Part shown: positions 43,808 through 63,745 of the stretch, one piece after another | Layout of the letters: each line of letters starts with the position of its first letter | Position numbering within the stretch: position 1 is the stretch's first letter | Translations under genes and position numbers: made by a program | Origin: a virus | Taxonomy: Duplodnaviria; Caudoviricetes | DNA: 64,000 nucleotides | Direction: 5' to 3' (one strand) | IMG/VR virus record: IMGVR_UViG_3300042402_002715 | Location: 518-64,517 of that record | The notes under the pieces: generated by a model | The model's input: only the letters and a program-made list of their open reading frames with translations | What the model was told of the DNA's origin: nothing | Database searches by the model: none

Positions 43808-45871
43808 ATGGCAATAGAATTTGTAGATGACAACGACAAAAACAAAAAGAAAACTGATGGTGGAACACCTGTTTTAGATAACTTCAGTAAAGATTTAATC
43901 AAACAAGCTCAATTAGGAAAATTAGATCCTGTAATTGGTAGGGAAAAAGAAATTTTAAGAATTGCTCAAGTCCTATCAAGAAGAAAGAAAAATAACCCAA
44001 TCATTATTGGTGAACCAGGTGCTGGAAAAACGGCAATAGTTGAGGGTCTTGCAATGATGATTCATAGCGGTGAATGCCCTAAAAATTTATCAGATAAAAG
44101 AATTGTATCATTAGACATTAATTCAATTGTTGCTGGAACAAAATATAGAGGACAATTTGAAGAAAGAATGAAAGTTATAATTGAGGAGTTACAAAATAAC
44201 CCAAATATTATAATTTTTATTGATGAAATTCATACAATGGTTGGTGCTGGCAATAGTTCGGGTTCACTTGATGCGTCAAACATATTCAAACCGGCATTAT
44301 CAAGAGGTGAAATTCAGTGTATTGGTGCTACAACTCTTGACGAATATAGAAAACACTTTGAGAAAGATGGTGCTCTAGAAAGAAGATTCCAAAAAATTAT
44401 TGTTGATCCGTCAACAAAACAAGAAACATTTGAGATTCTTAAATTAAGTAAAGAAAAATATGAAGATCATCACAAGGTTAATTACACCGATGAAGCTCTT
44501 TGGTTATGTGTCGAATTAGCTGACCGGTATATTACAGATAGAGAATTTCCAGATAAAGCATTTGATATTTTAGATGAAGTTGGGTCAAGGATGCAAATTG
44601 ATATTAAACTTCCGGAACATATTGAAAAATTAAAACAGGAAGCTCAAGACATCAAAAAGGAAAAAGCTGATGTTATTAAAAAACAAAAATATGAAATGGC
44701 TGCTGAATTAAGAGACCGTGAAAAAAATATTTTAACTAACCTTGAGGATGAAAAAAAGAAATTTGAGGAAGAGTTAAAAACTAGTAAAAGAGGTATTCCA
44801 GAAGAGTTAATTTACGAGGTTGTCTCAAACATGACAAAGATACCAGTAAGTAAAATTAATGTGGATGAAAAAAACTCACTTGTTAATTTAGAAGACACTC
44901 TAAATGCTAACGTTATTGGTCAAGAAGAAGCCGTTAAAAAAATATCAAAGTCAATTAGAAGGAATAGGGTCGGTATTAAAGATCCAAATAGACCAATAGG
45001 TTCATTTATATTCCTTGGGTCAACCGGTGTTGGTAAGACGTTTTTAGCTAAAAAACTGGCAAAAGAAATTTTTGGTAGTGAAGATAGTTTGATTCGTGTT
45101 GATATGTCCGAATATCAGGAAAAACACACCATATCAAGACTAATAGGTTCTCCTCCGGGATATGTTGGTCACGAAGAGGGTGGACAATTGACAGAACAAG
45201 TAAAAAATAAACCATATTCAGTGATTTTATTTGATGAGGTAGAAAAGGCAAATAAAGAAATTTTTGGAACTTTACTTCAAATGTTAGATGATGGACATAT
45301 GACAGATGGGTTAGGTAGAAAGATCAATTTTAAAAATTGTTTAATTATTATGACATCAAATATTGGTGTTAGAAAAGTTCAAGATTTTGGAAGTGGTGTT
45401 GGGTTTAAAACAAACAACAACAGTGAAGCTGTTCAAGAGGAATATAAAAGAGATGTTTTGAAAAAAGAATTAAGTAAGTTTTTTGCTCCAGAATTTTTAA
45501 ATAGAATTGATGATATTGTAATCTTTAATTCTTTGAAAAAAGAACATGTTGATAAGATTGTTAAACTTGAGATTGATAAATTAATTGATAGATTAAAATC
45601 AATGAAATACAATTTTACATATGAACAATCGGTAATTGAAAAAATTGCAAAGGTTGGGTTTGATGAATTGTTTGGAGCAAGACCAATCAAAAGAGCAATC
45701 CAGGATAAAATAGAAGATCTTATTTCAGAAAAAATATTAACAAATGAGGTTGTAGAGGAAAAACAATATATGTTATTTGTTAAAGGAGAAGGTGATGAGC
45801 AAACCATAGAACTAGAAGAAAGGGTTGTTCAAGAACCAAAGAAAAAGGGAAGAAAGAAAAAGGAGGATTAA
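43808..45871 (+). CDS. clpC: ClpC-like AAA+ unfoldase lacking the Clp N-terminal domain
   Basis: Two Walker A motifs (GEPGAGKT, GSTGVGKT), UVR middle domain, GVGF ClpP-docking loop; protein begins just before AAA-1. Confidence 0.9.
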   Translation: MAIEFVDDNDKNKKKTDGGTPVLDNFSKDLIKQAQLGKLDPVIGREKEILRIAQVLSRRKKNNPIIIGEPGAGKTAIVEGLAMMIHSGECPKNLSDKRIVSLDINSIVAGTKYRGQFEERMKVIIEELQNNPNIIIFIDEIHTMVGAGNSSGSLDASNIFKPALSRGEIQCIGATTLDEYRKHFEKDGALERRFQKIIVDPSTKQETFEILKLSKEKYEDHHKVNYTDEALWLCVELADRYITDREFPDKAFDILDEVGSRMQIDIKLPEHIEKLKQEAQDIKKEKADVIKKQKYEMAAELRDREKNILTNLEDEKKKFEEELKTSKRGIPEELIYEVVSNMTKIPVSKINVDEKNSLVNLEDTLNANVIGQEEAVKKISKSIRRNRVGIKDPNRPIGSFIFLGSTGVGKTFLAKKLAKEIFGSEDSLIRVDMSEYQEKHTISRLIGSPPGYVGHEEGGQLTEQVKNKPYSVILFDEVEKANKEIFGTLLQMLDDGHMTDGLGRKINFKNCLIIMTSNIGVRKVQDFGSGVGFKTNNNSEAVQEEYKRDVLKKELSKFFAPEFLNRIDDIVIFNSLKKEHVDKIVKLEIDKLIDRLKSMKYNFTYEQSVIEKIAKVGFDELFGARPIKRAIQDKIEDLISEKILTNEVVEEKQYMLFVKGEGDEQTIELEERVVQEPKKKGRKKKED

Positions 45872-46700: not shown

Positions 46701-47768
46701 TTACAAAAATTTTCTTAAAGTTTTTTTGACACTTTCAAATAATTCCGGATGGTATAATGTTAAATTAAGATCTTCAAGGTTATTAATAGATCTTTGTTGA
46801 ATAGGTGAACCTGAACCTGGTTTTTGGATTTGCATATGTAGTGTATTTGTCTTTTCATCCAAAGATATAAACTTTATAGTAATCTTTTTTTCAGGAATAT
46901 TAATCCATTTATCAAACCCACCAAGTTCATGGACTTTATTGTATAGTTTATTAAATTCTTCAATATCATACTCATCAGAATTATCACGAATTTCATCAAG
47001 TATTTTTTCTAAATGTTTTTTAAAGTTTTCTTGTTCTAAATTTTTATCAAAATCATCACACCAACCTTCGTATTGAAGATTCTCCCAATCACCAATATAA
47101 CTAACTTGTGGGTATTTTTCGTGTAATTTTGTTAGAAGTCCTTTAAGATCTTCATCTTCAGCGTTTAGTAAACGATATAGTTTTAAAATAACATTAACTG
47201 TTGTCTCAAATTTATAACCGTGACTTTTTTGAACTATTCCGAACCTTTTAAATGGGTTATCAGTTTCTTTTACTATCACCTGTTTTGCACCCTCATAAAT
47301 ACATTCCTCTCTTTGTTCGGCACTGTCATAAACCAATTCATCAATTACATCTTTAAATCTAGTTTCTAAAAATCTTGATATTTTAGATAAATTACCATAA
47401 TCACCTTCAATAACCCTTAAAGTTGGGTTTGTGTATTTTAATATCTCATTTACAAGTTCTGTATTTTCTTGATTAAAGTTTTGTAACGTATATCCTTCAC
47501 TCCAATCATCATCATATCTGTAAGTATCCCAATCACCATGATAATAACTACTCATAAATCTTTTAAATATATAACGATCCTCATCATCCTCATTAACACC
47601 TAAAACATCTAAAAAATCATCGTCATCATCAAAAGTAATTACAACCTTGATTGAATTTGATCCTCTTGTATGACGAACATCATATATTAACTTATCTGGA
47701 TAGGACCATCTATTGATTTCTTGACCATTTGATAAATTTTTAAAAAATTCGTAGGTTTCACTTGCCAT
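46701..47768 (-). CDS. Hypothetical protein
   Basis: 355-aa ORF; late motif at 47774-81; C-terminal LFESVKKTLRKFL. Confidence 0.7.
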   Translation of the reverse strand: MASETYEFFKNLSNGQEINRWSYPDKLIYDVRHTRGSNSIKVVITFDDDDDFLDVLGVNEDDEDRYIFKRFMSSYYHGDWDTYRYDDDWSEGYTLQNFNQENTELVNEILKYTNPTLRVIEGDYGNLSKISRFLETRFKDVIDELVYDSAEQREECIYEGAKQVIVKETDNPFKRFGIVQKSHGYKFETTVNVILKLYRLLNAEDEDLKGLLTKLHEKYPQVSYIGDWENLQYEGWCDDFDKNLEQENFKKHLEKILDEIRDNSDEYDIEEFNKLYNKVHELGGFDKWINIPEKKITIKFISLDEKTNTLHMQIQKPGSGSPIQQRSINNLEDLNLTLYHPELFESVKKTLRKFL

Positions 47769-47784
47769 ATTAGATAAATATAAT

Positions 47785-47813
47785 TATATTTGTATTTATA
47801 TATAGTTCTTTGA
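47785..47813 (+). promoter_or_regulatory. -7 promoter element and boxA-like motif upstream of tmRNA
   Basis: TATATTTG at 47785-92; GTTCTTTGA at 47805-13. Confidence 0.6.
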
Positions 47814-47819
47814 TAATAT

Positions 47820-48209
47820 GGGGGTGTTTTTGGATTTGACAGGTATTGGCTGAGGAATAAGGGCATGTAGGGACTGAATTAATCTCTTTAAAAACTGATT
47901 CACAAAACAACTGGCAATGTGCTAAACAAAATGGAAACTCTTGGATTAGTAAGAGGTTCTGAAGTTACTGTAGCTTAATTAGATACGGAAACGGGGGGTC
48001 GGCAGACATATAACCTAGCAACAGAAGTCGTAGCTTGATAGAGCACACCGGATGGCTCTTTAAATCCGATTCGGGACCATTGGTTGTTGATTTACGATGG
48101 TGAAGAACAAATCAAATATTTTGGGGTATTAGAAAATACCAACCTAAACATGTAGTCCTTATCTGACAGGATATTATGGACGAGGGTTCGAGTCCCTCCA
48201 CCTCCACCA
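47820..48209 (+). ncRNA. ssrA: tmRNA
   Basis: GGGGGTG/CACCTCC acceptor with G3-U70, T arm GAGGG-TTCGAGT-CCCTC, ACCA 3' end, GATTTGAC in the 5' part; tag ORF 47913-47978 GNVLNKMETLGLVRGSEVTVA*. Confidence 0.95.
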
Positions 48210-50072: not shown

Positions 50073-52154
50073 TTATCTTGCAACATTAGTTGTCTCAACG
50101 TCTCTATTAAGGGGTTGTTGAGCATTAAGATTGTTTTGTCTATCTTTTATACTAGCAAGTCTTTTTTGTTCTGCCGCAGCAGCTTCTTTTCGTCTTTTTT
50201 GTTCTGCATCTGTTGCAATTTTGTTTACGTCAACACCAGCAGTTTTAGCTGTTGTGTCAACTGATTTTACTAATCCCTTTGTTGCTCCACCAACACTTTT
50301 TGCTGTTGTTGCTGATACAGAACTTAATTTACCAATATCAGAACCGATATCACCCTGTCCAGATAATTTACCACTTCTTTGTAAATCAATTTTCTTATTG
50401 GCACCCTGCATTCCTTGTATGCCTCCACCGCCAGTGTATCCTAATTTTGCGAATTTGACAACTTTTCCACCAGTCTCACCACCAACATCTTGACCAACAG
50501 CTTCAGCGCCGGCCCAACCTAAATCTGAAGTCAAATCTGATGTAAGATTTGTTTTTAATTTCTGTGATGCTTTCTTTTGTATATATGCCTTTCCTCTTTC
50601 AGATGCCACCGTACTACCAGCTCCGGCTGCAATTACAAAATCGTCAATAAATTTTGATACTGTGTTTGCTACAGAATTTATTGCTGTACCAATTTTTGAT
50701 TTTGCTAGATATTTCCACCAAGATGTTGTTGTTAACCATTTTATAGCTTTGGAGATCATGCCACCAATTTTTGATACTCCGGATTTAATAAGGTCCATAA
50801 TACCTTTAAACCATTTAAACTTTGAGATTTTTGCAATTACACCACCTAATTTAGTTCCAGTACCCATTAATGGTTTTAACACACTACCAACAGTTTTGCC
50901 GACGGCACCAGTTGTTAAAATATTTACAACATCTAAAAGGATCTCAACAATTTTTGCTTTACCACTAGCAATCCAAACTAAAATATCACCTACTAATAAG
51001 ATACCCCAACCTATTGAACTTACAACTTTACCAACACCTGTAAAATCTAAAATAGTTGTTACTGCCGCACCAGCAACACCACCTAAAAACATTCTTAGAG
51101 ACTCAATTAATTTTTCAAAACCATCAATCGGTCTTGAAAATAGTTGTTGTACTCCTTCAGCGGCCTTTTCATAAGCATTTAGACCTGTAACATCCCCAAC
51201 AACACCAGCGGCTCTCATAGTTTGACTAACTGGTGGCGCTTTATATCCTAATTTTTGTAATCCAGTCCATATTTTACGGTATTGGCCATAATCATAATCA
51301 CTCATCTCATCTTTCGCCCAATCACCAACATTTTTAATACCGGACATGCCTCTAGCTAAAACTTTTGCATTTACCGCATCAAGGATTTGTTTACAAGTTA
51401 TTCTCCCGTATGCTGCAACGGCTTCAGCTTCGTATGTACCGGCACCATCAAAGGCGTAAGCTAATTCTTTAAAAATATCAGCAGCAACAGCAGGTATTTG
51501 ATTTGCCGCAATTGGTTTACCATCAGCGGTTTTACAAGCGGCAGATCCTCCTGATTTTGGTTTTGATTTAGATAATTTAAGAAATTCAGGACCACCTACA
51601 GCACCGGTAGTTTTACCCCATTGAGCTAAATTAAATGTTGCATTAATAAATTTAGATTCTAAGTTTATATTATTAGCTGGTTGTCCAGCGTATTTTCCTC
51701 CTGGGAATTTAAACAACCAAAGTCTTTTGTCGGCACCAGAAAAACTAATTGGCCACCCACCATTTTTATTAGTATCTTTCCAAATAACCCAAGGTCCCCA
51801 ATACATAAATGTTGATTTAACTGGATCATTAGCAACTTGCCATTGTACACCAATCCCTGAAGATTTAAGTTGATCAAATAATACTTTCCAATACCCAACT
51901 TGATCGGCACCTCTGACCCATTGTTCAGCAATTAAATTTTGTCTTGATTCCCAAACTTCTTTGAATGCTTTTTTAAGTGTTGTTTCAGAAATAACCTCAT
52001 TACTTGTTTTAGGTGTGAATAAAGTTTCTATTTTGTTTTCAACAATAACATTTTTACTTGTTTTTTCATTTTCAGTAACAAGTTTTCCTGGTTCATAATT
52101 CATCATGAATCCAATTCTCTTTAAATCTTCTATTAATAAAGTTTGATTAGTCAA
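50073..52154 (-). CDS. Large protein with shared N-terminal domain, annexin-like repeat and hydrophobic helices
   Basis: TTG start at 52154 (aligns with the paralog N-terminus; late motif at 52168-75); ELAYAFDGAGTYE..WAKDEMS. Confidence 0.55.
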   Translation of the reverse strand: MTNQTLLIEDLKRIGFMMNYEPGKLVTENEKTSKNVIVENKIETLFTPKTSNEVISETTLKKAFKEVWESRQNLIAEQWVRGADQVGYWKVLFDQLKSSGIGVQWQVANDPVKSTFMYWGPWVIWKDTNKNGGWPISFSGADKRLWLFKFPGGKYAGQPANNINLESKFINATFNLAQWGKTTGAVGGPEFLKLSKSKPKSGGSAACKTADGKPIAANQIPAVAADIFKELAYAFDGAGTYEAEAVAAYGRITCKQILDAVNAKVLARGMSGIKNVGDWAKDEMSDYDYGQYRKIWTGLQKLGYKAPPVSQTMRAAGVVGDVTGLNAYEKAAEGVQQLFSRPIDGFEKLIESLRMFLGGVAGAAVTTILDFTGVGKVVSSIGWGILLVGDILVWIASGKAKIVEILLDVVNILTTGAVGKTVGSVLKPLMGTGTKLGGVIAKISKFKWFKGIMDLIKSGVSKIGGMISKAIKWLTTTSWWKYLAKSKIGTAINSVANTVSKFIDDFVIAAGAGSTVASERGKAYIQKKASQKLKTNLTSDLTSDLGWAGAEAVGQDVGGETGGKVVKFAKLGYTGGGGIQGMQGANKKIDLQRSGKLSGQGDIGSDIGKLSSVSATTAKSVGGATKGLVKSVDTTAKTAGVDVNKIATDAEQKRRKEAAAAEQKRLASIKDRQNNLNAQQPLNRDVETTNVAR

Positions 52155-52244
52155 AATAATTTTATTAATAAATATTAGAATTTTATAAAAAATAAAAAAC
52201 CCCACCAAAAAAGTGAGGTCTTTAAAAAAATTCAAATCTTTAAG

Positions 52245-52418
52245 TTATTTAACAGATGTAGAATCTTTTACGGTTTCTGTTGCATTTGTTGTTGCGCTAT
52301 CAGTAGCACATTCAGTAGCATTAGGCGTTGCGTTTTCTGTTGCTGATTTTTCACCGCAAGATGTCATTAGAGAAATTGTGGTTAAAAGTGTCAAAGAAAT
52401 CAAAAATAATTTTTTCAT
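52245..52418 (-). CDS. Small lipoprotein (57 aa)
   Basis: MKKLFLISLTLLTTISLMTSC lipobox, Ala/Thr-rich tail; below the ORF-track size cutoff. Confidence 0.7.
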   Translation of the reverse strand: MKKLFLISLTLLTTISLMTSCGEKSATENATPNATECATDSATTNATETVKDSTSVK

Positions 52419-52496
52419 TTTTAAAAGAGAAATTAAGGTTTATTTATTATATATATACTAAAAAAATTTATAAAGTAAAAAGTAAAGAAAAAAAAA

Positions 52497-53362
52497 GGTT
52501 GAGATTACACCTGTGTTTGAGAACCTTTGGAAGGATTATTGTTTCCCTTCGTATCCACTTTCTTTTGGAAAGTATTTCTCAGTGACGGTCTTTTAGGTTT
52601 ACCACTCCTTTAGGTTTGAATTACTCTCATCTTACTTGACTCTTTCCGAGGATGCCTCCCCAGTTCGTCCTTGCGGGACTAAAGGTTTTTCGGATAATTA
52701 CACTCAGACTTGGGATCCTTGTGTGCAATGAACGGCTCATTACTATGTAGTCACCTTTCATCCAAACCTGACAGACACTTTTCCTTTTTGTTGTTAATAA
52801 TTTAGTTTTATTACTTTCCATAAAGTAGTTGTGTTGTGGATTATCAAAGTAGTGGTCTGTCAACCGAGCCAATTCATCTTTTGAACGAATCGATACTCAA
52901 CTACTCTGTGAAATGTCCCCATTTCCATATTTCTAGACTACTTCGAGATCGAACCCTTGGTAGGGGACGGTCAAGGTTAGTAACAACACCACTTGTACAC
53001 TAACATACCTTTCGGTTTTAAGTATCCTATCATAATGGAACACGCAATGATAAAATTGGATAATCTTATTTTTTGCAATATCCCTACGGGTTATTCCTAT
53101 TGGTGTTCCCACCTCAATCAAACGACCCACATCGCCCAATCATCTAACCACTTTCCCTACAGCGTTGCCCTCGGTACTAAAGATTAAACGGTATCCCGCT
53201 TGTGTACTCAAGTTCAGTTACCTAAACCGCAAATAAGTTAACACAACTTACTCACTTTATCCTGGTTTCCCAGTTTATTTTATGGACTATACACGGCCCA
53301 ATATCTTTATCAGTTTTGGTTTTAAATCCTAAGATTTTAACCTACTCCTGAACGGATAATCT
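52497..53362 (-). ncRNA. Large structured ncRNA (~870 nt), GOLLD-like
   Basis: No credible ORF, GC well above flanks, many hairpins incl. CTGG-GAAA-CCAG, ACC-GAAA-GGT, CC-GCAA-GG, TTTAG-GTAA-CTGAA; own promoter and boxA; size and tRNA-proximal phage context fit GOLLD. Confidence 0.65.
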
Positions 53363-53368
53363 AAATTT

Positions 53369-53412
53369 TCAAAGAACGTTTTCGGTCATTTCCGAATTGT
53401 TTTACAAAGTTA
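53369..53412 (-). promoter_or_regulatory. -7 promoter element and boxA-like motif for the large ncRNA
   Basis: TAACTTTG at 53412-05; GTTCTTTGA at 53377-69. Confidence 0.65.
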
Positions 53413-53453
53413 AGACTTTTATTTTGATTTGTCAAGTACTTTGTGAACTTTTT

Positions 53454-53603
53454 TTATTTTTTTTCTACGTAGACTTTATCAGTACCATATTTATTTGCCA
53501 TTATATGGGCAAACTCTAAATTTGGTGTAAAAACTTTTTGTCCGTTATTGTTGATGTATCCGTAGATAGCAACCTCAACTAATTCTGTTTCTTGTTCTGT
53601 CAT
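53454..53603 (-). CDS. Small hypothetical protein (49 aa)
   Basis: MTEQETELVEVAIYGY...YVEKK*; TATGTTTG -7 element upstream. Confidence 0.55.
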   Translation of the reverse strand: MTEQETELVEVAIYGYINNNGQKVFTPNLEFAHIMANKYGTDKVYVEKK

Positions 53604-53657
53604 TTTGTTTGATTTATATTTCAAACATAAAATAATTATTCGGTTGTGTCAAGAAAA

Positions 53658-54608
53658 TTATAAAACTTTTTTAATTATTTGATTGATTCTTTTTGTGTTT
53701 TTTGAAAACTTTTCTTCTTTCAATAACCACCCAAGGATATTCATTCCGGTTTTTTTATTTTTTTGTTCATCACTATCTAAACAAGTTTTTGCTAAAGTTA
53801 AAATTTCTTCATCACTTTTAGATGAATCACATTTTCTTCCAGCATTTAAAAATTTAAACTGTCCTGTTGTGTTTTTTTCGTTTCTCAAACACTGACAAAA
53901 ATCTGTAGTGACTGGTTTTGACTTTTCTTCTGGTTTTTTTTCTTCTGATTTCTTTTCTTCTGGTTTTTTATCTTTTGATTTCTTTTCTTCTGGTTTTTTA
54001 TCTTTTACATCTTTTGCCAGTAAAGGATCTGAATCCGGAAGTTCTGATTCTGGTGTGTTCCAGTATTTTGTCATATACGCCTTACAAGTTGCACCTTCAG
54101 TTTTCATTTTATTTGATGATACCTCACCATGACCATATATATTTGATAGTGGATAACCTAATGATTTTACCAATTTTAAAGCCGTTTTACATTGAGGGAT
54201 TAAAATATCATTATCTTCCTTTGCTATTATCTCAACACCTTGTGATGAGCTATTACCAAGATCTTTTGGTGCGGAAGGATAAAGTGATGTAACATGGGCA
54301 CCTTTAGCCCCAGAAGGTAAACCTTTATATAATTTACCATCCCTATCAATAATCCAATGAATTCCTAAGCCTCTCGCATTTAATACACTTATAACTTGAG
54401 AAGCCAGACCTCTACCAGCTGTATGATGAACAATAAAATATTTATCATTTGGTAATTTTTTTGATTTAAAAGTTGATGTTCCGGAAATATCGGTAATATC
54501 TAAAGCACCCTCTTTAAGAATGTTTTTTTTAAAACTAAAAGATGATATAGACTCATAAAGTCTATCAATTTCCATAAGTTCATTTTTTTTTCCAGGAATA
54601 TAACCCAT
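53658..54608 (-). CDS. N-acetylmuramoyl-L-alanine amidase (Amidase_2)
   Basis: IVHHTAG, HWIIDRDG, GAH, GVE, YGHGE..C. Confidence 0.85.
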   Translation of the reverse strand: MGYIPGKKNELMEIDRLYESISSFSFKKNILKEGALDITDISGTSTFKSKKLPNDKYFIVHHTAGRGLASQVISVLNARGLGIHWIIDRDGKLYKGLPSGAKGAHVTSLYPSAPKDLGNSSSQGVEIIAKEDNDILIPQCKTALKLVKSLGYPLSNIYGHGEVSSNKMKTEGATCKAYMTKYWNTPESELPDSDPLLAKDVKDKKPEEKKSKDKKPEEKKSEEKKPEEKSKPVTTDFCQCLRNEKNTTGQFKFLNAGRKCDSSKSDEEILTLAKTCLDSDEQKNKKTGMNILGWLLKEEKFSKNTKRINQIIKKVL

Positions 54609-56845: not shown

Positions 56846-56921
56846 TGGCGGCTCCAACGGGACTCGAACCCGTACCACACGCCGTGACAGGGCGGTATTG
56901 TAGCCATTCAACCATGGAGCC
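56846..56921 (-). tRNA. tRNA-Asp(GTC)
   Basis: Cloverleaf; loop CT-GTC-AC; encoded CCA. Confidence 0.92.
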
Positions 56922-56930
56922 AAAATTTTG

Positions 56931-57002
56931 TAGTCTGTACGGGAATCGAACCCGTGACTTCGCCGTGAAAGGGCGACGACTTAACCCCTTGTCGAACAGA
57001 CC
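56931..57002 (-). tRNA. tRNA-Glu(TTC)
   Basis: Cloverleaf; TCGCC-CTTTCAC-GGCGA. Confidence 0.92.
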
Positions 57003-57019
57003 ATTTTAATTTAGTTTTA

Positions 57020-57051
57020 CAAAGATAGTTAGTTTATTTTAATCTACCAAA
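57020..57051 (-). promoter_or_regulatory. Bacteroidota promoter module (repeated at 58138-58169 and 58564-58595)
   Basis: TTTGGTAGATT..(20-nt spacer)..TAnnTTTG in three near-identical copies. Confidence 0.7.
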
Positions 57052-57192
57052 TCTTTTTTTAAGTTTTTTCTTTAATGTTTTTACAAAATCAGATTTAAAA
57101 TTAGTTTTAACAAATTTTACTTTAGATGATTCTGAAGTTCCTGATAAAACCATATTTTCCATCATTTATTCTTTTTACTCGTTTATTTTTTG

Positions 57193-57265
57193 AGCGGAAG
57201 AAGGGACTCGAACCCTCAACCACCTGCTTGGAAGGCAGGAGCTCTACCAATTGAGCTACTTCCGC
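57193..57265 (-). tRNA. tRNA-Gly(TCC)
   Basis: GCGGAAG acceptor; CCTGC-CTTCCAA-GCAGG. Confidence 0.95.
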
Positions 57266-57271
57266 TTATTG

Positions 57272-57352
57272 TACTGACGGTTGGACTCGAACCAACGTTT
57301 TAAACTTACCGCTACAGGCATAGATGATATAAGCATCCACTGGTACGTCAGC
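57272..57352 (-). ncRNA. D-arm-less tRNA-Ile(TAT)-like RNA
   Basis: GCTGACG/CGTCAGT acceptor, GGATG-CTTATAT-CATCT arm, canonical T arm; only ~7 nt where the D arm should be, 25-nt variable region. Confidence 0.6.
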
Positions 57353-57358
57353 ATTTAG

Positions 57359-57432
57359 TTGCGTCGTTCTGGAATCGAACCAGATTTATGAGGCTTATGA
57401 GACCCCCCCAGATACCAACCTGTCCACTCGCA
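57359..57432 (-). tRNA. tRNA-Met(CAT), irregular acceptor stem
   Basis: GGGGT-CTCATAA-GCCTC; T arm TCTGG-TTCGATT-CCAGA. Confidence 0.75.
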
Positions 57433-57437
57433 ATATG

Positions 57438-57543
57438 TAGTCAAAGAAGGAGTCGAACCTTCACGAGATAAGTGTGAAAATCACCTTACCCCAAGGAGTT
57501 TTGAGTATTATCTCCCAGCGTCTACCAATTCCGCCACTTGACT
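57438..57543 (-). ncRNA. Aberrant tRNA-Leu(CAA)-like RNA (106 nt)
   Basis: AGTCAAG/TTTGACT acceptor, Leu-type D arm, 13-nt anticodon loop ATAATA-CTCAAAA, ~31-nt variable arm, normal T arm. Confidence 0.65.
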
Positions 57544-57779
57544 GTTTTGAGGTTGAGAGCCTCAGTGTTGTTATGACGTAGTTAATCACACTCCTACTGT
57601 ATTCCTTTCTCAAGGGAACAACACAATTTTACTGTAGTTTAGTAGTTGACTCAAACTCTCGTTTCACCATCTTGAGTCAACAGGTTAATGCACTTTACGA
57701 GTTTCCCGTTTCTTACAACCACAATATTTTCCAATATTTCAAAGAATCCTTTTCCTTATTTGTTTAACAAAGATATGTA

Positions 57780-58117
57780 TTATTTTGTATTAATTATTTT
57801 ATATTTTCTTCCTTCTTTTTTTAATGTACCAACAAGGTCTTCTTTATAGTCAATTCCACTCCAAAAACCAGATCCGTCTGACCAAACACCTTTTTTATTG
57901 TTTTTATAAACCATATCACCTTCAAATGTAATGTATTCAGGTTGGTCATTTTTAGTCAAAGCATATGCTCTTGTCATTTCTCTATTCTCAGATGGTGAAT
58001 AATTACCTAACCAATCTTGTCTGCATAAAAATGTTGCTTGTCCAACAATAACTTCTTGCCCATCAAGAATAACTTTTTTGTTGAATTTTTTTTAAATGTA
58101 TAAATGTAAGTACCCAT
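57780..58117 (-). pseudogene. Hypothetical gene interrupted by a frameshift in an A8 tract
   Basis: MGTYIYTFKK then frame change at TTT-A8-TTC (58093-86); one extra A joins it to the 57977-57780 ORF. Confidence 0.55.
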
Positions 58118-58156
58118 ATGTTTTTTTATTTGTTTTACAAAGATATGTATTTTATT

Positions 58157-58273
58157 TCAATCTACCAAATCTTTTTTAAACTTTTCTTTTCTTGTATATT
58201 TCTTTTTATTACGATACACATTTGGCCTTGTTGTCATCATAATCTCCTGATATGTAATCTCAATTGTTTTCAT
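58157..58273 (-). CDS. Small basic protein (38 aa), ArfA-like motif
   Basis: MKTIEITYQEIMMTTRPNVYRNKKKYTRKEKFKKDLVD*. Confidence 0.5.
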   Translation of the reverse strand: MKTIEITYQEIMMTTRPNVYRNKKKYTRKEKFKKDLVD

Positions 58274-58559
58274 CGTTATATAATCTTTGAACGTGTTTAA
58301 TTATTTTATTTATATCTTCTTCTGTTTGGTAAGCTAGTACATCATTTGTTATTTCTGTATCATAACAAATCTCCCACTGATTTTTTGTTCCTTTTAAAAT
58401 TGCAACCTCCCAAGTATTATCATCTGTATATGAATAAAACCCACTTGGTGTTAAAAATCTAACAGCAGATAAACCATAACCACCAGGAAAAAAAATTAAT
58501 CCTTGTTGTCCATGCCCAGATTTATGTGGTTCAAATTCTATATCCTTAAATGTTATCAT
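58260..58559 (-). CDS. Hypothetical phage protein
   Basis: 99-aa ORF, FPGGYGLSAV..WEVAILK; -7 element at 58564-71. Confidence 0.7.
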   Translation of the reverse strand: MITFKDIEFEPHKSGHGQQGLIFFPGGYGLSAVRFLTPSGFYSYTDDNTWEVAILKGTKNQWEICYDTEITNDVLAYQTEEDINKIIKHVQRLYNDENN

Positions 58560-58598
58560 AAAACAAAAGTATAAATAATTTTTTAATCTACCAAATTT

Positions 58599-58636
58599 TC
58601 AAAGAACAAAAAAACCCCTCTTTTTTAGAGAGGGGC
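58599..58636 (-). terminator. Attenuator terminator followed directly by boxA-like motif
   Basis: CCCCTCT-CTAAAAA-AGAGGGG-T7 then GTTCTTTGA (58607-599). Confidence 0.75.
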
Positions 58637-58662
58637 TTCAAAATTTTTATATGTATAAAATC

Positions 58663-58731
58663 TTACACCCTCTCCTTAAAAGAATCCTCAGCTAAATCGC
58701 CTCCTATCAATGATATGTGTAAATTTTTCAT
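58663..58731 (-). CDS. Putative leader peptide (22 aa) of the attenuator for tRNA cluster 2
   Basis: MKNLHISLIGGDLAEDSFKERV*; late motif at 58752-59; final codons GAGAGGG complementary to terminator arm CCCTCTC. Confidence 0.6.
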   Translation of the reverse strand: MKNLHISLIGGDLAEDSFKERV

Positions 58732-58790
58732 TTGCGGTTTTTTATTTTGATATAAATATAGTAATAATTTTAAAAGTGTCAAGTTTTATT

Positions 58791-59297
58791 TTAATCTTCG
58801 ATGCTATCAAGTAATTCAACAACCTCATCAACTGATTTTTCTAACACTTTTATATTTTTTATTGTGGCATCATCTTCAGCAAAATCTTCTAAATCTCTAA
58901 CTTTATCATAAGCAGATTCCAAGTCATTTAATAATCCATTAAGATCAATATCATAATCTTCAAAATCACTTTTATGAAGTTTGACACCTTTTTCATTATA
59001 AGACCTAACCAATTGTTTAAGAACACTTAATGTTTTTTTCATTTTGATAAAATCATCCATTAAATCTTCAGCTACTTTATATTGGCCGTGTTCAAAAGAA
59101 TCTCCTTTTATCATTGTTTTTAATTTACCAAATGCAATCATCATTCTACCAACACCATTAAATATTGCCATTGAAATATTGTTTGCGGTTTTTCTAACTT
59201 TCAAATCTTTTTTTACGTTTGGGTAACCATCTTCATTAATTACACGTTTAACAATTCTTGTTAAGTCTGATTCTGTTAATCTTATTATTCTTTTCAT
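58791..59297 (-). CDS. Hypothetical protein, probable internal head protein
   Basis: MKRIIRLTESDLTRIVKRVINE N-terminus; late motif at 59316-23. Confidence 0.65.
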   Translation of the reverse strand: MKRIIRLTESDLTRIVKRVINEDGYPNVKKDLKVRKTANNISMAIFNGVGRMMIAFGKLKTMIKGDSFEHGQYKVAEDLMDDFIKMKKTLSVLKQLVRSYNEKGVKLHKSDFEDYDIDLNGLLNDLESAYDKVRDLEDFAEDDATIKNIKVLEKSVDEVVELLDSIED

Positions 59298-59343
59298 AAT
59301 TTTTATATTTTATTAATAAATATATAGATGATTAAAAAAGTTG

Positions 59344-59417
59344 TACCCCCAGCAGGACTCGAACCTGCAAAAATGTGAGCCTAAATCACACTCGTATACC
59401 AATTCCGACATAGAGGC
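59344..59417 (-). tRNA. tRNA-Leu(TAG) lacking the long variable arm
   Basis: TGTGA-TTTAGGC-TCACA; variable region only TTTTT. Confidence 0.8.
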
Positions 59418-59426
59418 ATTTTGTTG

Positions 59427-59498
59427 AGGTCCTAATTGGAATCAAACCAATCTAACCGGTTTTGCAGACCGGTGCCTAAGTCTCTCGGCCATAGGACC
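59427..59498 (-). tRNA. tRNA-Cys(GCA)
   Basis: CCGGT-CTGCAAA-ACCGG; U73 discriminator. Confidence 0.88.
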
Positions 59499-59503
59499 AT
59501 ATA

Positions 59504-59959
59504 TTAACGGCAGTGGTAATCTGCCGCTTTTGTTGCAATTTGATTATGGGGTTTTATATTTGTTTTATATCCCAAGGATGTCGCCCACCCAACAGCTGGT
59601 TGAACCAGTTTTGAACTAAAGTGTTTTTCATCACTATTAAAGTCCAAATCAATTTCAACTTTTACTTTTACTTTCTGGGTTAACCATTCGGCAACCTCAA
59701 TTGAATAATCGGCCTCATTCCAAAGACGTGTCCATTTATCTTTTATTTTTTTCACTTTTTGTTTGTGAAGAATATAATGAACACCCCTATTTCCATACCT
59801 ATATGCTATTACCGTAACATACACGGTACTTCTTCTGTGGTTTTGTGAGTCAGTCCCAATGTGGACTTCCACCCAGGGACATTCTTTTAGAACACCCAAA
59901 GTGTGATTAACCACATCTGGTATTGCAACACCATTAACCGTTCTAAAAACTCTGTTCAT
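59504..59959 (-). CDS. RNase H-like YkuK/DUF458 family protein
   Basis: IGTDSQN, RLWNEA..SIEVA, EIDLDFN..FSS, IKP..ATKAAD. Confidence 0.8.
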   Translation of the reverse strand: MNRVFRTVNGVAIPDVVNHTLGVLKECPWVEVHIGTDSQNHRRSTVYVTVIAYRYGNRGVHYILHKQKVKKIKDKWTRLWNEADYSIEVAEWLTQKVKVKVEIDLDFNSDEKHFSSKLVQPAVGWATSLGYKTNIKPHNQIATKAADYHCR

Positions 59960-59981
59960 TTTAGTTAATTTTAATTGTTTG

Positions 59982-60054
59982 TGGACAGGGAGGGTGTCGA
60001 ACCCCCGACTCCAGGATCTTCAATCCTGAGCTCTACCAACTGAGCTACCTGTCC
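59982..60054 (-). tRNA. tRNA-Phe(GAA)
   Basis: CAGGA-TTGAAGA-TCCTG cloverleaf. Confidence 0.93.
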
Positions 60055-60063
60055 TTATTTTTG

Positions 60064-60134
60064 CACGTGGTGTAGGGATCGAACCTACCCGGCGAGGTTT
60101 TGGAGACCTGCCCGACGCCCTGTCTGTACCACGT
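60064..60134 (-). tRNA. tRNA-Trp(CCA)
   Basis: AGGT-CTCCAAA-ACCT; ACGTGGT/ACCACGT acceptor; G73. Confidence 0.85.
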
Positions 60135-60172
60135 AAATTTGCCCGACCTAGCTCGGGACCGACATCGGATAT

Positions 60173-61027
60173 TCATATACTATCTAACCAAGAATTACCA
60201 AGTTTAACATAATCTTCATTTATCTCATATCCCTCAAAATTACATTCTAAAGTTTTTGAAACAACACATTCACTTCCAGATCCTGCAAATATAATTAAAA
60301 CATTTGGTTTTAATTCTTTTGGTATTGAGGATTTTATTAATTTTTCGGTTAAAGATAATGGTTTTTGTGTTGGGTGTACAATTATTTTATGATTTTCGTG
60401 ACTCTTTTTTTCTTTTGGTTCACAAAAAATGTTACAAGTATCACAATAAAAATACCTTTCTTTTGCACCCGATCCTCCAGCTAATGATGGTATTTTTATT
60501 ACATCCCTTGGTAATGCGCCATTTTCGTTTGCATTATAAATTGTTTCTTTATCACCAAATCTCCCTTTAGTTGCCTTTCTTTTTTTTCCTGCGGCATTCT
60601 TAATAAAACTTTCAGTATAATCTTCTCTAACATCATCCAAATTAAAATTTACAGTTTCACCTTTCCAAACATGGATTATTGATTCGTGACTTCTTTGCCA
60701 AAATTTATAGTGTGGGACCGTTTTATTTGTATAATGCCAGACTAACCATTTTTTTGTTTCATACTTAATATTAACAAATATATGTGCTAAAATCTCACTA
60801 AAACCATAAATAAAAATAGAACCACCAGGTTTTAATACTCTATATGATTCAATAAACCATTCATTACACCAATCCAAATAATCCTTTAATGTTCTTTTAT
60901 CTGAATCATTACCAAAATCTTTACCTATATTATATGGTGGATCTATAATGATTGTATCAATTGTATTGTCTTCTTTTTTTTTTAATTCGATTATACAGTC
61001 AACATTTAATATTTTGTTTTTTAACAT
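60173..61027 (-). CDS. N6-adenine/N4-cytosine DNA methyltransferase (beta class)
   Basis: DPPY, HPTQKP, FAGSGS; small CxxC..H..H insert. Confidence 0.9.
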   Translation of the reverse strand: MLKNKILNVDCIIELKKKEDNTIDTIIIDPPYNIGKDFGNDSDKRTLKDYLDWCNEWFIESYRVLKPGGSIFIYGFSEILAHIFVNIKYETKKWLVWHYTNKTVPHYKFWQRSHESIIHVWKGETVNFNLDDVREDYTESFIKNAAGKKRKATKGRFGDKETIYNANENGALPRDVIKIPSLAGGSGAKERYFYCDTCNIFCEPKEKKSHENHKIIVHPTQKPLSLTEKLIKSSIPKELKPNVLIIFAGSGSECVVSKTLECNFEGYEINEDYVKLGNSWLDSI

Positions 61028-61611
61028 ATCGTTATTTTTTTTACAAAATTTATTAATGATAAATCAACCTCAACCCATAGTTGGTGTGACATTGATTTAG
61101 TTATTTTACATTTAATTTTACCATCTTTACTTATACCCTCCCAACCAGAAACTCTATTTTTATATTTACCTTTTTTTCCTATTGTTTCTATCCATTTGAA
61201 ATTTTTATAATCAAAAATTTCTTTATTAATATAATTTATAAAATAATTTTTATCCCAAATTTCACTATCATTTCTAGATAAAAATAAAAAACTATCATAA
61301 TTAACGTTTTCCAAAAAATCTAATTTTTCCTCAATTGTTTCAAATCTACCAAGCCTATGTGATGAAAAAATTAATTTATTATCTTTTATTGTTCCGGTTT
61401 TTAGTTGTGGTAAAAATTTATTATTATCTAATTCAAAATTTAAATCGTGACCAGTACTATGGTTAAATGCGGTATACTTAGAATTTTCTTTGTTCATTAC
61501 TTGGTCTACTAAATCTTCCCAAGCTTCTGCCTTTACTGGTATTCTATAAATTTGGTGGTGTTGATATAACTTAGTTTCAATAAGTGATAAGATCTCTTCG
61601 TTAAATTTCAT
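61021..61611 (-). CDS. Putative restriction endonuclease-like protein (PD-(D/E)xK-like)
   Basis: WE..HSTGHD..QLK pattern; overlaps the MTase start; true start ATG 61611 (longer ORF would run through tRNA-Arg); own -33/-7 promoter at 61646-16. Confidence 0.45.
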   Translation of the reverse strand: MKFNEEILSLIETKLYQHHQIYRIPVKAEAWEDLVDQVMNKENSKYTAFNHSTGHDLNFELDNNKFLPQLKTGTIKDNKLIFSSHRLGRFETIEEKLDFLENVNYDSFLFLSRNDSEIWDKNYFINYINKEIFDYKNFKWIETIGKKGKYKNRVSGWEGISKDGKIKCKITKSMSHQLWVEVDLSLINFVKKITIC

Positions 61612-61653
61612 AATACAAATGTAATTAAAATTTTTTAAATGACAAACTAATTG

Positions 61654-61726
61654 TACCCCCTCAGAGACTCGAACTCCGACCTGACACCTTAGAAGAGTGT
61701 TGTACTTCCAATTATACGAAAGGGGC
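61654..61726 (-). tRNA. tRNA-Arg(TCT)
   Basis: ACACT-CTTCTAA-GGTGT cloverleaf. Confidence 0.9.
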
Positions 61727-61730
61727 AAAT

Positions 61731-61895
61731 AAAAGATGATGAACAACTTTATCAGGAATCCCGTCCTCAGACTTCACACACCATTAGAGAGCTGGGTTGT
61801 TACATCAACACAATTAAGATTGAATACCTATCCTTAGTGTGTACCCTTGCGAACACCTCTCCGTGTCCGTTGTTCTACGCCTTTTATCATCTTTT
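61731..61895 (-). ncRNA. Orphan rod-shaped structured RNA (~165 nt)
   Basis: Nested pairings AAAAGATGAT/ATCATCTTTT, GAACAAC/GTTGTTC, GGAGAG/CTCTCT, GGGT/ACCC, ACACA/TGTGT. Confidence 0.55.
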
Positions 61896-61896
61896 G

Positions 61897-61968
61897 TACC
61901 TTCGGAGAGGGTCGAACTCCCAATCATCAGATTCGTATTCTGAGGCTTTTCCATTAAGCTACGAAGGT
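61897..61968 (-). tRNA. tRNA-Arg(ACG)
   Basis: TCAGA-ATACGAA-TCTGA cloverleaf. Confidence 0.9.
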
Positions 61969-61974
61969 ATATTG

Positions 61975-62048
61975 TGTGTATGATGGGTCACGATCCCATG
62001 GCCTCCACTTTCACAGAGTGGCACTCTACCAACTGAGCTACATACACC
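61975..62048 (-). tRNA. tRNA-His(GTG)
   Basis: CCACT-CTGTGAA-AGTGG; G-1 present; T loop ATCGTGA. Confidence 0.85.
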
Positions 62049-62054
62049 ATGTTG

Positions 62055-62123
62055 TCCCGTATGTTGGACTTGAACCAACCTCAAGTCGGATATGAACCAA
62101 CTTTGATCCCTGATCATACGGGA
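62055..62123 (-). tRNA. tRNA-Met/Ile2(CAT) with minimal D loop
   Basis: AAGTTGG-TTCATAT-CCGACTT; D arm GATC-AGG-GATC; canonical T arm. Confidence 0.65.
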
Positions 62124-62127
62124 GTTG

Positions 62128-62216
62128 AGGAAAGCAGTGGTAACGATCCACAATCGGAGTCTCACCGATCGCAATGCTTAGCAGGCATGCCCCGTCGCCT
62201 TCAGGGATTACTTTCC
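62128..62216 (-). tRNA. tRNA-Ser(GCT)
   Basis: ATGC-CTGCTAA-GCAT; long variable arm; T loop ATCGTTA. Confidence 0.85.
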
Positions 62217-62221
62217 ATTTG

Positions 62222-62294
62222 TGCTCATCACCGGTTACGATCCGATTCTCTCCACGATATCAGCGTGGTGCTTTCCCGATTAAGCTAGATGAGC
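62222..62294 (-). tRNA. tRNA-Ile(GAT)
   Basis: CCACG-CTGATAT-CGTGG; T loop ATCGTAA. Confidence 0.88.
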
Positions 62295-62455
62295 TGGTAC
62301 GTATTTAGGGGTATTTCTTAACCACCCCCTCAGCTCGTCAGCATCTCGGTGGTCGATACTTTAGTCACAGCGAACCCAACTGCTGTTTCTTACTAGATGC
62401 TCGCGGCCTACTTACTCGAGACGTTACCACTACGGGGAACCCAACATTGTATCTT

Positions 62456-62533
62456 TGGCGGACCAGGTAGGACTCGAACCTACTATCCCTCGCTTAACAG
62501 GCGAAAGCTTATAACCACTTAAGCTTCTGGTCC
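62456..62533 (-). tRNA. tRNA-Asn(GTT)
   Basis: TTCGC-CTGTTAA-GCGAG; encoded CCA. Confidence 0.92.
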
Positions 62534-62537
62534 AGTG

Positions 62538-62618
62538 TGGAAGTGGTAGGGGTCGAACCTACACGCCTTTCGGACTTGATTTACAGTCAAGCGAGCCAGC
62601 CAAATGCTCAACACTTCC
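62538..62618 (-). tRNA. tRNA-Tyr(GTA)
   Basis: CTTGA-CTGTAAA-TCAAG; variable arm CC-GAAA-GG. Confidence 0.9.
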
Positions 62619-62624
62619 TTATTG

Positions 62625-62695
62625 TACCTCAAGATGGATTTGAACCACCACCGATAGTTTGTAATACTACCACGCTCCGATTACGCCATTAGGGC
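62625..62695 (-). tRNA. tRNA-Val(TAC)
   Basis: GTAGT-ATTACAA-ACTAT; one mismatch in the acceptor stem. Confidence 0.75.
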
Positions 62696-62756
62696 CTTTG
62701 TTTCTACAAAGATAATATTTTTTTTTAATTCTTCAGACATTGACTGAATTTTTTTG

Positions 62757-62830
62757 TGTCCCCGGTGAGACTCGAACTCACACTCTTTCCATTAAAAGTG
62801 GAAAGCTTTAACCAGTTAAGCTACGAGGAC
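62757..62830 (-). tRNA. tRNA-Lys(TTT)
   Basis: TTCCA-CTTTTAA-TGGAA cloverleaf. Confidence 0.93.
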
Positions 62831-62891
62831 TTTTGTTTGTTATACTTGTCACTTTCCATAACACTTGTTTTTATTTGTTTATTTTATTTAG

Positions 62892-62964
62892 TCTAAGTGA
62901 CAGGGGTCGAACCTGCGGCCTGAGCGTCCCAAACGCCCCGCTCTACCATCTGAGCTACACCTAG
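62892..62964 (-). tRNA. tRNA-Pro(TGG)
   Basis: GGGCG-TTTGGGA-CGCTC cloverleaf. Confidence 0.92.
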
Positions 62965-62972
62965 TTATTATT

Positions 62973-63061
62973 TGGAGGAAGAAGTAGGTGTCGATCCCAA
63001 TACCCGCAAAGGTACCACCCGTTTTCAAGACGGGGTCATAGGCCGCTATGATTCATCTTCC
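62973..63061 (-). tRNA. tRNA-Ser(TGA)
   Basis: CCCGT-CTTGAAA-ACGGG; long variable arm; encoded CCA; T loop ATCGACA. Confidence 0.88.
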
Positions 63062-63614
63062 TTTTATTCCAGTCAATTTTTGCTTTTATACTTAATTTTT
63101 CTTTTGTTTCTTTTGAAACGTATAATCCTTTAGTCCATCCTTTTAAAATATAAGCTTCTAGTTCTGTTTTTTTTATTTTTTTATTTACACAATCTTTATT
63201 AATCCATGTGGTACCAAATTGTGAATTTTTTTCACCAGATCCTTGTCCTTTTTTAGTGTTACTTATTTTTAACTTAATATCTTCAGAATGTGTTTTTCCG
63301 TAGAAACCATTTATTTCTAATAATTTACCACCATAACCACCTAAAGCAATATTCATACATAATTTGTCTTTCAATAAACTTTCATTTACAATTTCCTTTT
63401 CTTTATTTATTAGTAAATCCCTGTTTGGGAAAAACTCAATTATTTCTTTTGTGTGGTTTTCAATCCCGTATTTTTTAATTGAGTTCCAAAGTTTTTTTCC
63501 AGACCCCATATATCCATCTTCTAAATTATCTGTCGAATGTATTCCGACATAAAATTTATTTGTTACACTACAAATAATTTTATAAATGTAGTGATGTTTT
63601 TTTTCTACTACCAT
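63036..63614 (-). mobile_element. Free-standing GIY-YIG homing endonuclease (Seg-like, NUMOD3)
   Basis: YIYKII...FYVGIH..Y.GSG, FYGKTHSEDIKLKIS; start ATG 63614; inserted between tRNA-Gln and tRNA-Ser. Confidence 0.85.
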
Positions 63615-63658
63615 AATTAAAATATGTTTTTTATAATAGTTTATGTTCCAATTTATTG

Positions 63659-63729: not shown

Positions 63730-63745
63730 TTATAAGGCCAATATG

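Follow-up and report, generated by a model that had tools for sequence, protein, structure and literature searches.

A full-length GOLLD RNA gene behind a leader resembling that of Bacteroidota rRNA operons in a tailed jumbo phage

Introduction

GOLLD RNAs are about 800 nt in length, occur in phages and lake metagenomes near tRNA genes, and are, as far as is known, among very few natural RNAs that assemble into large cages without protein. They have been reported to rise during phage lysis and to be associated with ribosomes. The discovery paper of the family is said to be that of Weinberg et al. from 2009.

The closest described systems are RNA cages. In the available part of the structural work, the env-38 GOLLD was described as a 14-mer cage made of RNA only (Kretsch et al. 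2025, PMC12286853), and the same partial text describes ROOL as a large RNA of phages and prophages that is located near tRNAs and forms an RNA-only cage. According to the accessible text of PMC12990946, the 3′ domain of the Streptococcus agalactiae GOLLD was mainly a decamer.

Bacterial rRNA (rrn) operons were the other system to which the present locus was compared. In E. coli, antitermination in the rrn leader involves a boxB hairpin, boxA, NusB–NusE (S10), NusA, and NusG, and rrn operons carry boxA in both the leader and the spacer. In Bacteroidota, the promoter consensus consists of TTTG near −33 and TAnnTTTG near −7.

In this study, a GOLLD gene was analyzed in a 64,000-nt stretch of viral DNA, hereafter the window, which makes up almost all of a 64.5-kb IMG/VR virus record with an estimated completeness of 22%. 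The GOLLD family is known, and what is new is one more member together with its rRNA-style leader, which is a modest addition. As a whole, the locus is best explained as a full-length GOLLD gene that forms its own transcription unit with an rRNA-type leader and whose product would, by homology, form a cage; a probability of about 0.75 was assigned to this reading.

Identification of a full-length GOLLD RNA gene

The sequence was compared with Rfam models. The GOLLD model (RF02032) was matched on the minus strand at positions 52496..52908 of the window with 320.7 bits, against a cut-off of 150, and an E value of 4.8e-91. The match covered model positions 1–416 of 416, and no second GOLLD match was present in the whole record. 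As a full-length match above the cut-off indicates a GOLLD member and not a new class, it is virtually certain that the block belongs to the GOLLD family. The original prediction had offered a GOLLD member or a new giant noncoding RNA class as alternatives and had proposed a search with Rfam models; the former alternative was borne out, with GOLLD matched from end to end. The Rfam search returned no ROOL match in the window, and no other family was matched in the 5′ half at E ≤ 1, except for a chance-level match on the opposite strand (E = 0.59).

The RF02032 model spans just the conserved 3′ half of GOLLD, and thus the upstream part of approximately 460 nt required separate evidence. This part, the GOLLD 5′ domain (52909..53368, minus strand), lies outside the Rfam model and is conserved and covarying in related viral loci. 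It is contiguous with the 3′ domain, and the two domains occur together in nearly all related loci; the 5′ half of the window copy aligned to nearly all of the viral loci with 67–92% identity. When the 5′ domain was searched with blastn, two public phage records only were matched, while parts of the 3′ domain also matched Acinetobacter phages.

The block is a gene for a full-length GOLLD RNA of approximately 870 nt with a leader of approximately 30–40 nt. The length from the base after the boxA-type motif described below (53368) to the last Rfam-matched base (52496) was 873 nt, in agreement with the predicted length of about 870 nt. From the presumed transcription start near 53400 to the end of the T-run, the length was about 913 nt, and the GOLLD body in relatives measured 840–907 nt.

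The earlier description of the block as ORF-free, GC-elevated, and dense in hairpins and GNRA tetraloops also held. In segments of 200 nt, the GC content was 0.37–0.44 across 52500–53299, compared with 0.19–0.35 in 52000–52499 and 0.225–0.285 in 53300–53899. The longest ORF in the block was 81 aa, with ORFs of 81 and 68 aa on the minus strand. A conserved protein-coding frame had been named in advance as a finding that would speak against the prediction; across 52 relatives no reading frame was conserved, the longest stop-free stretch varied from 57 to 146 aa, and the alignment contained indels that were not multiples of three. The folding energy of the 914-nt RNA was −235.9 kcal/mol, compared with −213.2 ± 7.6 kcal/mol for 20 shuffled sequences (z = −2.98), none of which folded as well. 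In the consensus structure, the window copy had 22 hairpin loops, six of which were GNRA tetraloops (GAAA twice, GUAA, GGAA, GGGA, and GUGA).

Structural conservation of the two domains

To gather relatives, an exact pattern of 30 nt was taken from the 3′ domain, and it matched 98 viral stretches, 80 of them with 2-kb flanks; because the pattern was exact, the sample is biased toward close kin. The full-length loci numbered 73 including the window, and the 52 unique ones were aligned. The same pattern gave 0 stretches in 185,579 species genomes, a result that concerns that exact subtype pattern alone and not GOLLD in bacteria. The 52 unique full-length sequences of one subgroup also provide a comparative set for the 5′ domain, which is poorly catalogued.

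Covariation on homologues, which the original prediction had proposed as a check, was assessed using RNAalifold and slid controls, in which the pairing partner was shifted by 1–3 columns. In total, 193 pairs were predicted from the 52 unique relatives. Compensatory double changes, in which both partners differ in one or more sequences and still pair, were shown by 109 of them; these counts are to be read with the caveat that a single alignment served both to predict the structure and to score it and that the 52 sequences are related. For the 5′ domain, 101 pairs were predicted, 98.0% of the cells were paired, and 65 pairs had double changes, whereas the slid controls gave 16–23 double-change pairs with 35–42% of the cells paired. 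For the 3′ domain, 99.0% of the cells were paired in 91 predicted pairs, and 44 pairs had double changes as against 5–14 in the slid controls. Structural selection acts on both halves of the RNA, and the 5′ half covaries as strongly as the 3′ half. One 5′-domain hairpin combines an invariant GAAA loop with a covarying stem, which is CUGG/CCAG in the window and CUAC/GUAG or CCAC/GUGG elsewhere.

Two long-range helices were considered and rejected. A leader–trailer helix of AGAUUA near the 5′ end with UAAUCU in the last loop was dropped because relatives with UAUUCU on the 3′ side keep GAUUA on the 5′ side. The helix that RNAalifold placed between columns 125–128 and 1173–1176 was disregarded because it pairs the promoter with the RNA body.

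Within the 3′ domain, a variable AU-rich linker is located at 52780..52847 (minus strand). It measures 68 nt in the window copy and 51–73 nt among the 52 relatives, where its hairpins are weak and variable, and no tRNA was found within it in any of the 52. By its position, we infer that the linker is the counterpart of the disordered linker inside the env-38 cage, as the latter is described in the available part of PMC12286853.

Signals for transcription of the GOLLD gene

The original prediction had placed a −7 box, a small leader hairpin, and a further box ahead of the RNA body, and all three were found on the minus strand at 53412–53405, 53396–53381, and 53377–53369, respectively. Upstream of them, an A-rich tract (53449..53464, minus strand) overlaps the stop codon of a small upstream ORF, and a run of at least six A was present within 40 nt upstream of the −7 box in 45 of the 52 relatives. 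The tract resembles an UP element and may act as one. The promoter block itself, TTGACA-N17-TAACTTTG (equivalent to TTG-N20-TAACTTTG), occupies 53435–53405 of the window; it consists of TTGACA with the “−33” TTG at 53430..53435 and the “−7” box TAACTTTG at 53405..53412, both on the minus strand and both recognized from the sequence and the relatives.

The pattern TT[GT]-N19-21-TAnnTTTG was present in 48 of the 52 unique relatives, and TAnnTTTG was found upstream of GOLLD in 50 of them. In the window, TTG-N20-TAnnTTTG occurred eight times against 2.78 expected, and none of 100 shuffles reached eight. As judged from these patterns, the putative promoter fits the Bacteroidota type. In the alignment, conservation starts at the A-tract and promoter and not farther upstream, and the promoter and leader signals persist with differing upstream neighbors, namely, a tRNA in four loci and protein-coding sequence elsewhere.

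The leader hairpin, TTCGG-AAATGA-CCGAA, is located at 53381..53396 (minus strand), the position of boxB in an rrn leader, and is part of the minimum-energy fold. Among relatives whose leader measures 24–28 nt, the stem had 4–7 bp with varying sequence, for example, TTCGG/CCGAA, TCAGG/CCTGA, ATCGG/CCGAT, and CTTGG/CCAAG. The 635-kb phage LR745206 has a hairpin in this position whose sequence is unrelated.

At the other end of the gene, a T-run at 52488..52495 (minus strand) directly follows the last hairpin (AGGU-GUAAUCUCA-ACCU) and, as read from its sequence, is the presumed termination site. A T-rich tail (at least 7 of 12) directly 3′ of the last hairpin was found in 36 of the 52 relatives, and a canonical hairpin with a T-run lay 28–33 nt downstream in seven more. 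Neither a T-rich tail nor a terminator within 47 nt was found in the other nine, four of which appeared, by eye, to run into a tRNA 5′ end. The putative terminator of the window is atypical in that the stem of the last hairpin has just 4 bp.

The phage, its gene neighborhood, and the host

The window encodes a major head protein, head protease, portal, large terminase, PhoH-like protein, dUTPase, and endolysin. As the record was estimated to be 22% complete, the genome should be near 290 kb, and several related contigs measured 270–304 kb. The source is a fragment of a tailed jumbo phage of roughly 290 kb.

On the same minus strand as GOLLD, an array of 17 tRNAs spans 56846–63843, i.e., 3.4–10 kb upstream of the RNA. 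A tmRNA gene at 47820–48209 lies 4.3 kb from GOLLD. The gene next upstream on the minus strand is a small ORF (53454–53624), which is preceded by the endolysin gene (53658–54608, minus strand). A tRNA lay within 2 kb in 23 of the 80 related loci with flanks. In Acinetobacter phage AM24, the GOLLD, which is unannotated, lies between tRNA-Asn and tRNA-Asp.

A ClpB-like ATPase of the phage was 55–61% identical to Bacteroidota proteins (Cryomorpha, Flavobacteriales, Kriegella, Pedobacter, Bacteroides, and others) and 45–52% identical to those of other phyla. Based on this identity together with the promoter type, the host is probably a member of the Bacteroidota.

The boxA-type motif of the leader

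The boxA-type motif GTTCTTTGA (53369..53377, minus strand) was recognized from the sequence, the relatives, and Bacteroidota rRNA leaders. Among the 52 unique relatives, 51 had the leader box GTTCTTT[GA] and one had a deletion there. The distance from the −7 box to the start of this motif was 27 nt in the window and 24–28 nt in most relatives, and the motif was fixed while the preceding hairpin and the following stem region varied. RNAalifold left it unpaired, and the variable 5′ end of the GOLLD body comes after it.

To compare the motif with rRNA operons, 16S genes were located in five Bacteroidota genomes reached via the ClpB search, and the five operons (three genomes) with at least 300 nt upstream of 16S were counted. 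All five carried AAGTTCTTTGA, which preceded the 16S start by 90, 104, or 150 nt. In three of the five, AGTTCTTTGA appeared again 454–501 nt past the 16S end, in the presumed 16S–23S spacer. Across both strands of these genomes, the 10-mer AGTTCTTTGA had 27, 60, and 45 copies in 2.9, 5.3, and 4.4 Mb, respectively. The motif was absent from the 195 nt available upstream of 16S in the fourth genome, and the fifth had no upstream sequence. Since the motif occupies the 16S leader and the spacer, which are the two rrn places of boxA, it was taken to be the box of Bacteroidota rRNA operons. At the level of sequence and position, the boxA label is therefore well founded. Accordingly, the predicted “rRNA-style promoter and boxA” stood with respect to sequence and position (48 of 52 promoters, 51 of 52 boxes, and all five 16S leaders), while binding of Nus factors to the motif and prevention of termination by it are putative.

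In the window, GTTCTTTGA occurred four times against 1.2 expected, which is a weak enrichment when taken alone, as three of 100 shuffles also reached four. Of the other three copies, one precedes the tmRNA by 6 nt and is itself preceded by a promoter-like site, one separates tRNA-Thr from tRNA-Gln, and the fourth copy of the window (58599–58607) lies upstream of a promoter and not in a leader. The box was also found 5–7 nt before tmRNA in at least 98 viral stretches, at least five of them on contigs that also hold this GOLLD subtype. The joint presence of GOLLD with a tmRNA and a tRNA array carrying the same box points toward a translation-linked role. In some relatives, the RNA body contained a second GTTCTTTG, at a place taken by GATATTG in others.

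In Acinetobacter phage AM24 and in LR756502, no boxA-like motif was found in several hundred bases upstream of GOLLD. Thus, the box is a feature of a subgroup and is not general to GOLLD. As to whether a GOLLD phage of another phylum carries the boxA of that phylum, AM24 and LR756502 neither confirm nor refute the Bacteroidota reading.

In the literature search, no paper linking GOLLD with boxA or antitermination was found. Queries for boxA with TTCTTTGA returned unrelated papers only, with “boxa” matched inside other words. In the available part of PMC12286853, the terms “promoter”, “terminator”, and “Rho” led to a T7 promoter only, and in the accessible text of PMC12990946 “antitermination” appeared only in a T-box reference.

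Presence of the RNA in metatranscriptomes

Between 35 and 43% of the sampled words of the stretch were held by 17 metatranscriptome runs from riverine and other aquatic sources. In four runs from four studies, contigs lay on 52483–53352 with a summed word depth of up to about 10^4; depth on contigs shows presence and not strand, ends, level, or timing. The identity of the contigs to the window ranged from <90% to 100%, and several pieces were without differences. The GOLLD RNA of the window, or of close relatives, is present in river and other aquatic RNA libraries. The flanks at 51700–52308 and 53440–54300 were without cover in these four runs, although relatives with other flanks would not map there, and one run contained a contig of depth 5 at 52327–52494. 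These gaps are therefore not counted in favor of particular transcript ends or of a discrete RNA.

Proposed mechanism and alternative explanations

The following mechanism is proposed from the order of the signals. The host-type promoter would start the RNA, and its first approximately 30 bases would carry the hairpin and a boxA identical to that of rRNA leaders in the host phylum. This leader would recruit the host NusB/NusE-based rRNA antitermination complex. With this complex, RNA polymerase would be protected from Rho-dependent termination over the 0.9 kb of untranslated RNA. The complex may also aid co-transcriptional folding, and transcription would end at the T-run. We incline, by a small margin over even odds, to this reading of the gene as an independent transcription unit that uses the NusB/NusE complex. 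The combination of promoter, hairpin, boxA, and T-run suggests how a phage could make a 0.9-kb untranslated RNA in quantity and which host factors would matter. 

As for the product, its copies are likely to assemble without protein into a closed cage, a view that rests on homology to solved GOLLD RNAs. In such a cage, the 5′ domains would form the caps and the 3′ domains the ring, with the AU-rich linker directed inward. As copy number differs among GOLLD subtypes (14 in env-38), it is not predictable for the RNA of the window. A role of the cage as a container or scaffold for translation-related cargo, such as phage tRNAs, seems doubtful. On a wider scale, a widespread lineage of freshwater Bacteroidota jumbo phages may have placed GOLLD, tmRNA, and some tRNAs each behind the host rRNA boxA and may make them via the host machinery for rRNA antitermination and folding; this is advanced tentatively, at somewhat less than even odds. 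On that view, GOLLD would be made “like an rRNA”, and a leader that stayed on the RNA could also deliver NusB and ribosomal protein S10 to the cage, as one route to the reported association with ribosomes.

Among the alternatives, the one that carries most weight accepts the GOLLD RNA and takes GTTCTTTGA as a site of processing that yields the mature RNA, as the binding site of another factor, or as part of the first helix. The box stands just 6 nt before the mature tmRNA 5′ end, and it does so at 5–7 nt in at least 98 viral stretches; this spacing is tighter than that known for rrn leaders and fits processing or a leader role. The copy of GTTCTTTGA outside any leader, the second GTTCTTTG within the RNA body of some relatives (GATATTG in others), and the GOLLDs of AM24 and LR756502 without the motif also agree with this explanation. 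However, the motif is identical to the Bacteroidota rRNA box at both canonical boxA places, the leader and the spacer, and it stays constant while the preceding hairpin and the following stem region vary. In addition, the box is unpaired in RNAalifold and lies upstream of the variable GOLLD 5′ end. Overall, this alternative was considered rather unlikely, and the antitermination leader is preferred.

It is considerably less probable that GOLLD lacks its own promoter and is the untranslated 3′ part of a late (lysis) transcript covering the endolysin gene and the small ORF. In favor of this, short gaps separate the endolysin gene, the small ORF, and GOLLD, all three of which lie on the minus strand, and the search for a terminator-like site in the last of these gaps gave none. 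The GOLLD of AM24, moreover, forms part of a tRNA operon and is not immediately preceded by a promoter-like motif. Nevertheless, the promoter pattern was kept in 48 of the 52 relatives, even where the upstream neighbors differ and a tRNA ends directly before it, and sequence conservation begins at the A-tract and promoter, not beyond, which favors an independent unit. Most improbable of all is that the block is not GOLLD but a protein-coding region, another ribozyme or intron class, or a new RNA family. The 81- and 68-aa minus-strand ORFs and the approximately 460 nt unmatched by the Rfam model could be cited in its favor. Against them stand the full-length match at twice the cut-off and the lack of any conserved ORF, given stop-free stretches of 57–146 aa and indels that break the triplet frame. 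Moreover, no other Rfam family appeared at E ≤ 1 apart from the chance match at 0.59, and the unmatched part is contiguous with the 3′ domain, co-occurs with it in nearly all related loci, and covaries. A GOLLD gene with its own leader thus remains the preferred reading of the locus.

Comparison with known systems

In its body, the RNA resembles the env-38-type GOLLD as described in the available part of PMC12286853, with a total length of more than 800 nt, a 5′ domain, and a 3′ domain that contains an AU-rich linker. It further shares with environmental GOLLD RNAs the location in a phage near tRNA genes and the 5′-domain hairpin with the invariant GAAA loop. The RNA body showed no feature against GOLLD membership. 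A leader with promoter, hairpin, and boxA-type motif, as it stands ahead of the window copy, is not mentioned in the accessible portions of PMC12286853 and PMC12990946. Particular to its subgroup, which is likened to env-38 by description, are the probable Bacteroidota host and the jumbo phage with a tmRNA.

The S. agalactiae GOLLD belongs to the same family and has the same conserved 3′ domain, whereas it is without several helices of the environmental type and has another copy number, according to the part of PMC12990946 that was available. Because its copy number differs, that of the RNA of the window should not be assumed.

In terms of its leader, the locus follows the bacterial rrn leader in the order of promoter, hairpin, and boxA, and its box is identical to that of Bacteroidota 16S leaders and spacers. 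As in an rrn operon, the product is a long, untranslated, highly structured RNA. Unlike rrn, the unit is encoded by a phage and stands before a non-ribosomal RNA, and its leader, known here from sequence, is very short. ROOL, finally, is unrelated to the GOLLD of the window in sequence and fold, and both are cage-type families of ornate phage RNAs.

Boxes ahead of the tmRNA and among the tRNAs

The boxA-type 9-mer of the GOLLD leader, GTTCTTTGA, was also found ahead of the phage tmRNA (47820–48209, plus strand), where it occupied 47805–47813 on the same strand and ended 6 nt from the tmRNA 5′ end. A promoter-like site, TTG-N20-TATATTTG, was present at 47762–47792 (plus strand), and the whole feature including these upstream signals spanned 47762–48209. 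At least 98 viral stretches had the box located 5–7 nt ahead of a tmRNA 5′ end, and in no fewer than five of them the contig also encoded the present GOLLD subtype.

Besides the GOLLD and tmRNA boxes, two copies of GTTCTTTGA were detected in the window, both on the minus strand. The copy at 58599–58607 directly followed a terminator-like hairpin and was positioned just 5′ of a promoter-like site serving the ORF at 58260–58559. The other, at 63746–63754, was situated between tRNA-Thr and tRNA-Gln, 16 nt ahead of the latter. The array of 17 tRNAs (56846–63843, minus strand) was interspersed with protein genes for an RNase H-like PF04308 protein (59504–59959) and a DNA methylase (60173–61027), as well as a GIY-YIG/NUMOD3 homing-endonuclease-like ORF (63036–63749).

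Conserved module upstream of GOLLD in related loci

A conserved module of approximately 40 nt, with the core RTGAAAGAYACTCGK inside a UUUGAA...UUCAAA stem, was present in 15 of the 80 related loci (L011, L013, L014, L027, L041, L043, L046, L050, L055, L057, L061, L072, L074, L082, and L083) and was absent from the window. It was on the GOLLD strand every time, approximately 810–1120 nt 5′ of the GOLLD pattern; in some loci it stood in place of the short leader hairpin, and elsewhere it was found just 5′ of the promoter. The module had no match in Rfam. In one Bacteroidota genome (L184), the leader of the 16S gene contained a 10-nt string that also occurred in the module; this overlap may be a matter of chance.

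Neighboring genes and the GOLLD RNA of phage AM24

The endolysin (amidase) gene (53658–54608, minus strand), which shares its strand with GOLLD, ended approximately 250 nt 5′ of the promoter of that RNA. Its position is noteworthy because GOLLD expression was reported to rise at lysis (PMC12286853); the link between the two is anecdotal here. Between the gene and the promoter was a 56-aa ORF (53454–53624, minus strand), the sole match of which was a weak one to a WG-repeat and the 3′ part of which aligned 5′ of the promoter in approximately nine related loci. Just 3′ of the GOLLD T-run, a 57-aa ORF (52245–52418, minus strand) had an N-terminal hydrophobic run ending in ...LMTSC, which, judged by eye, resembled a lipoprotein signal.

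The phage-borne ClpB/ClpC-like chaperone gene with two AAA domains (43808–45871, plus strand) is likely host-derived and a clue to the host, since its product was 55–61% identical to Bacteroidota proteins.

In Acinetobacter phage AM24 (L190, KY000079.2), the 790-nt gap between tRNA-Asn and tRNA-Asp (record positions 24801–25590), unannotated in GenBank, contained a GOLLD RNA, the 3′ domain of which scored 214.7 bits (locus positions 1363–1731).
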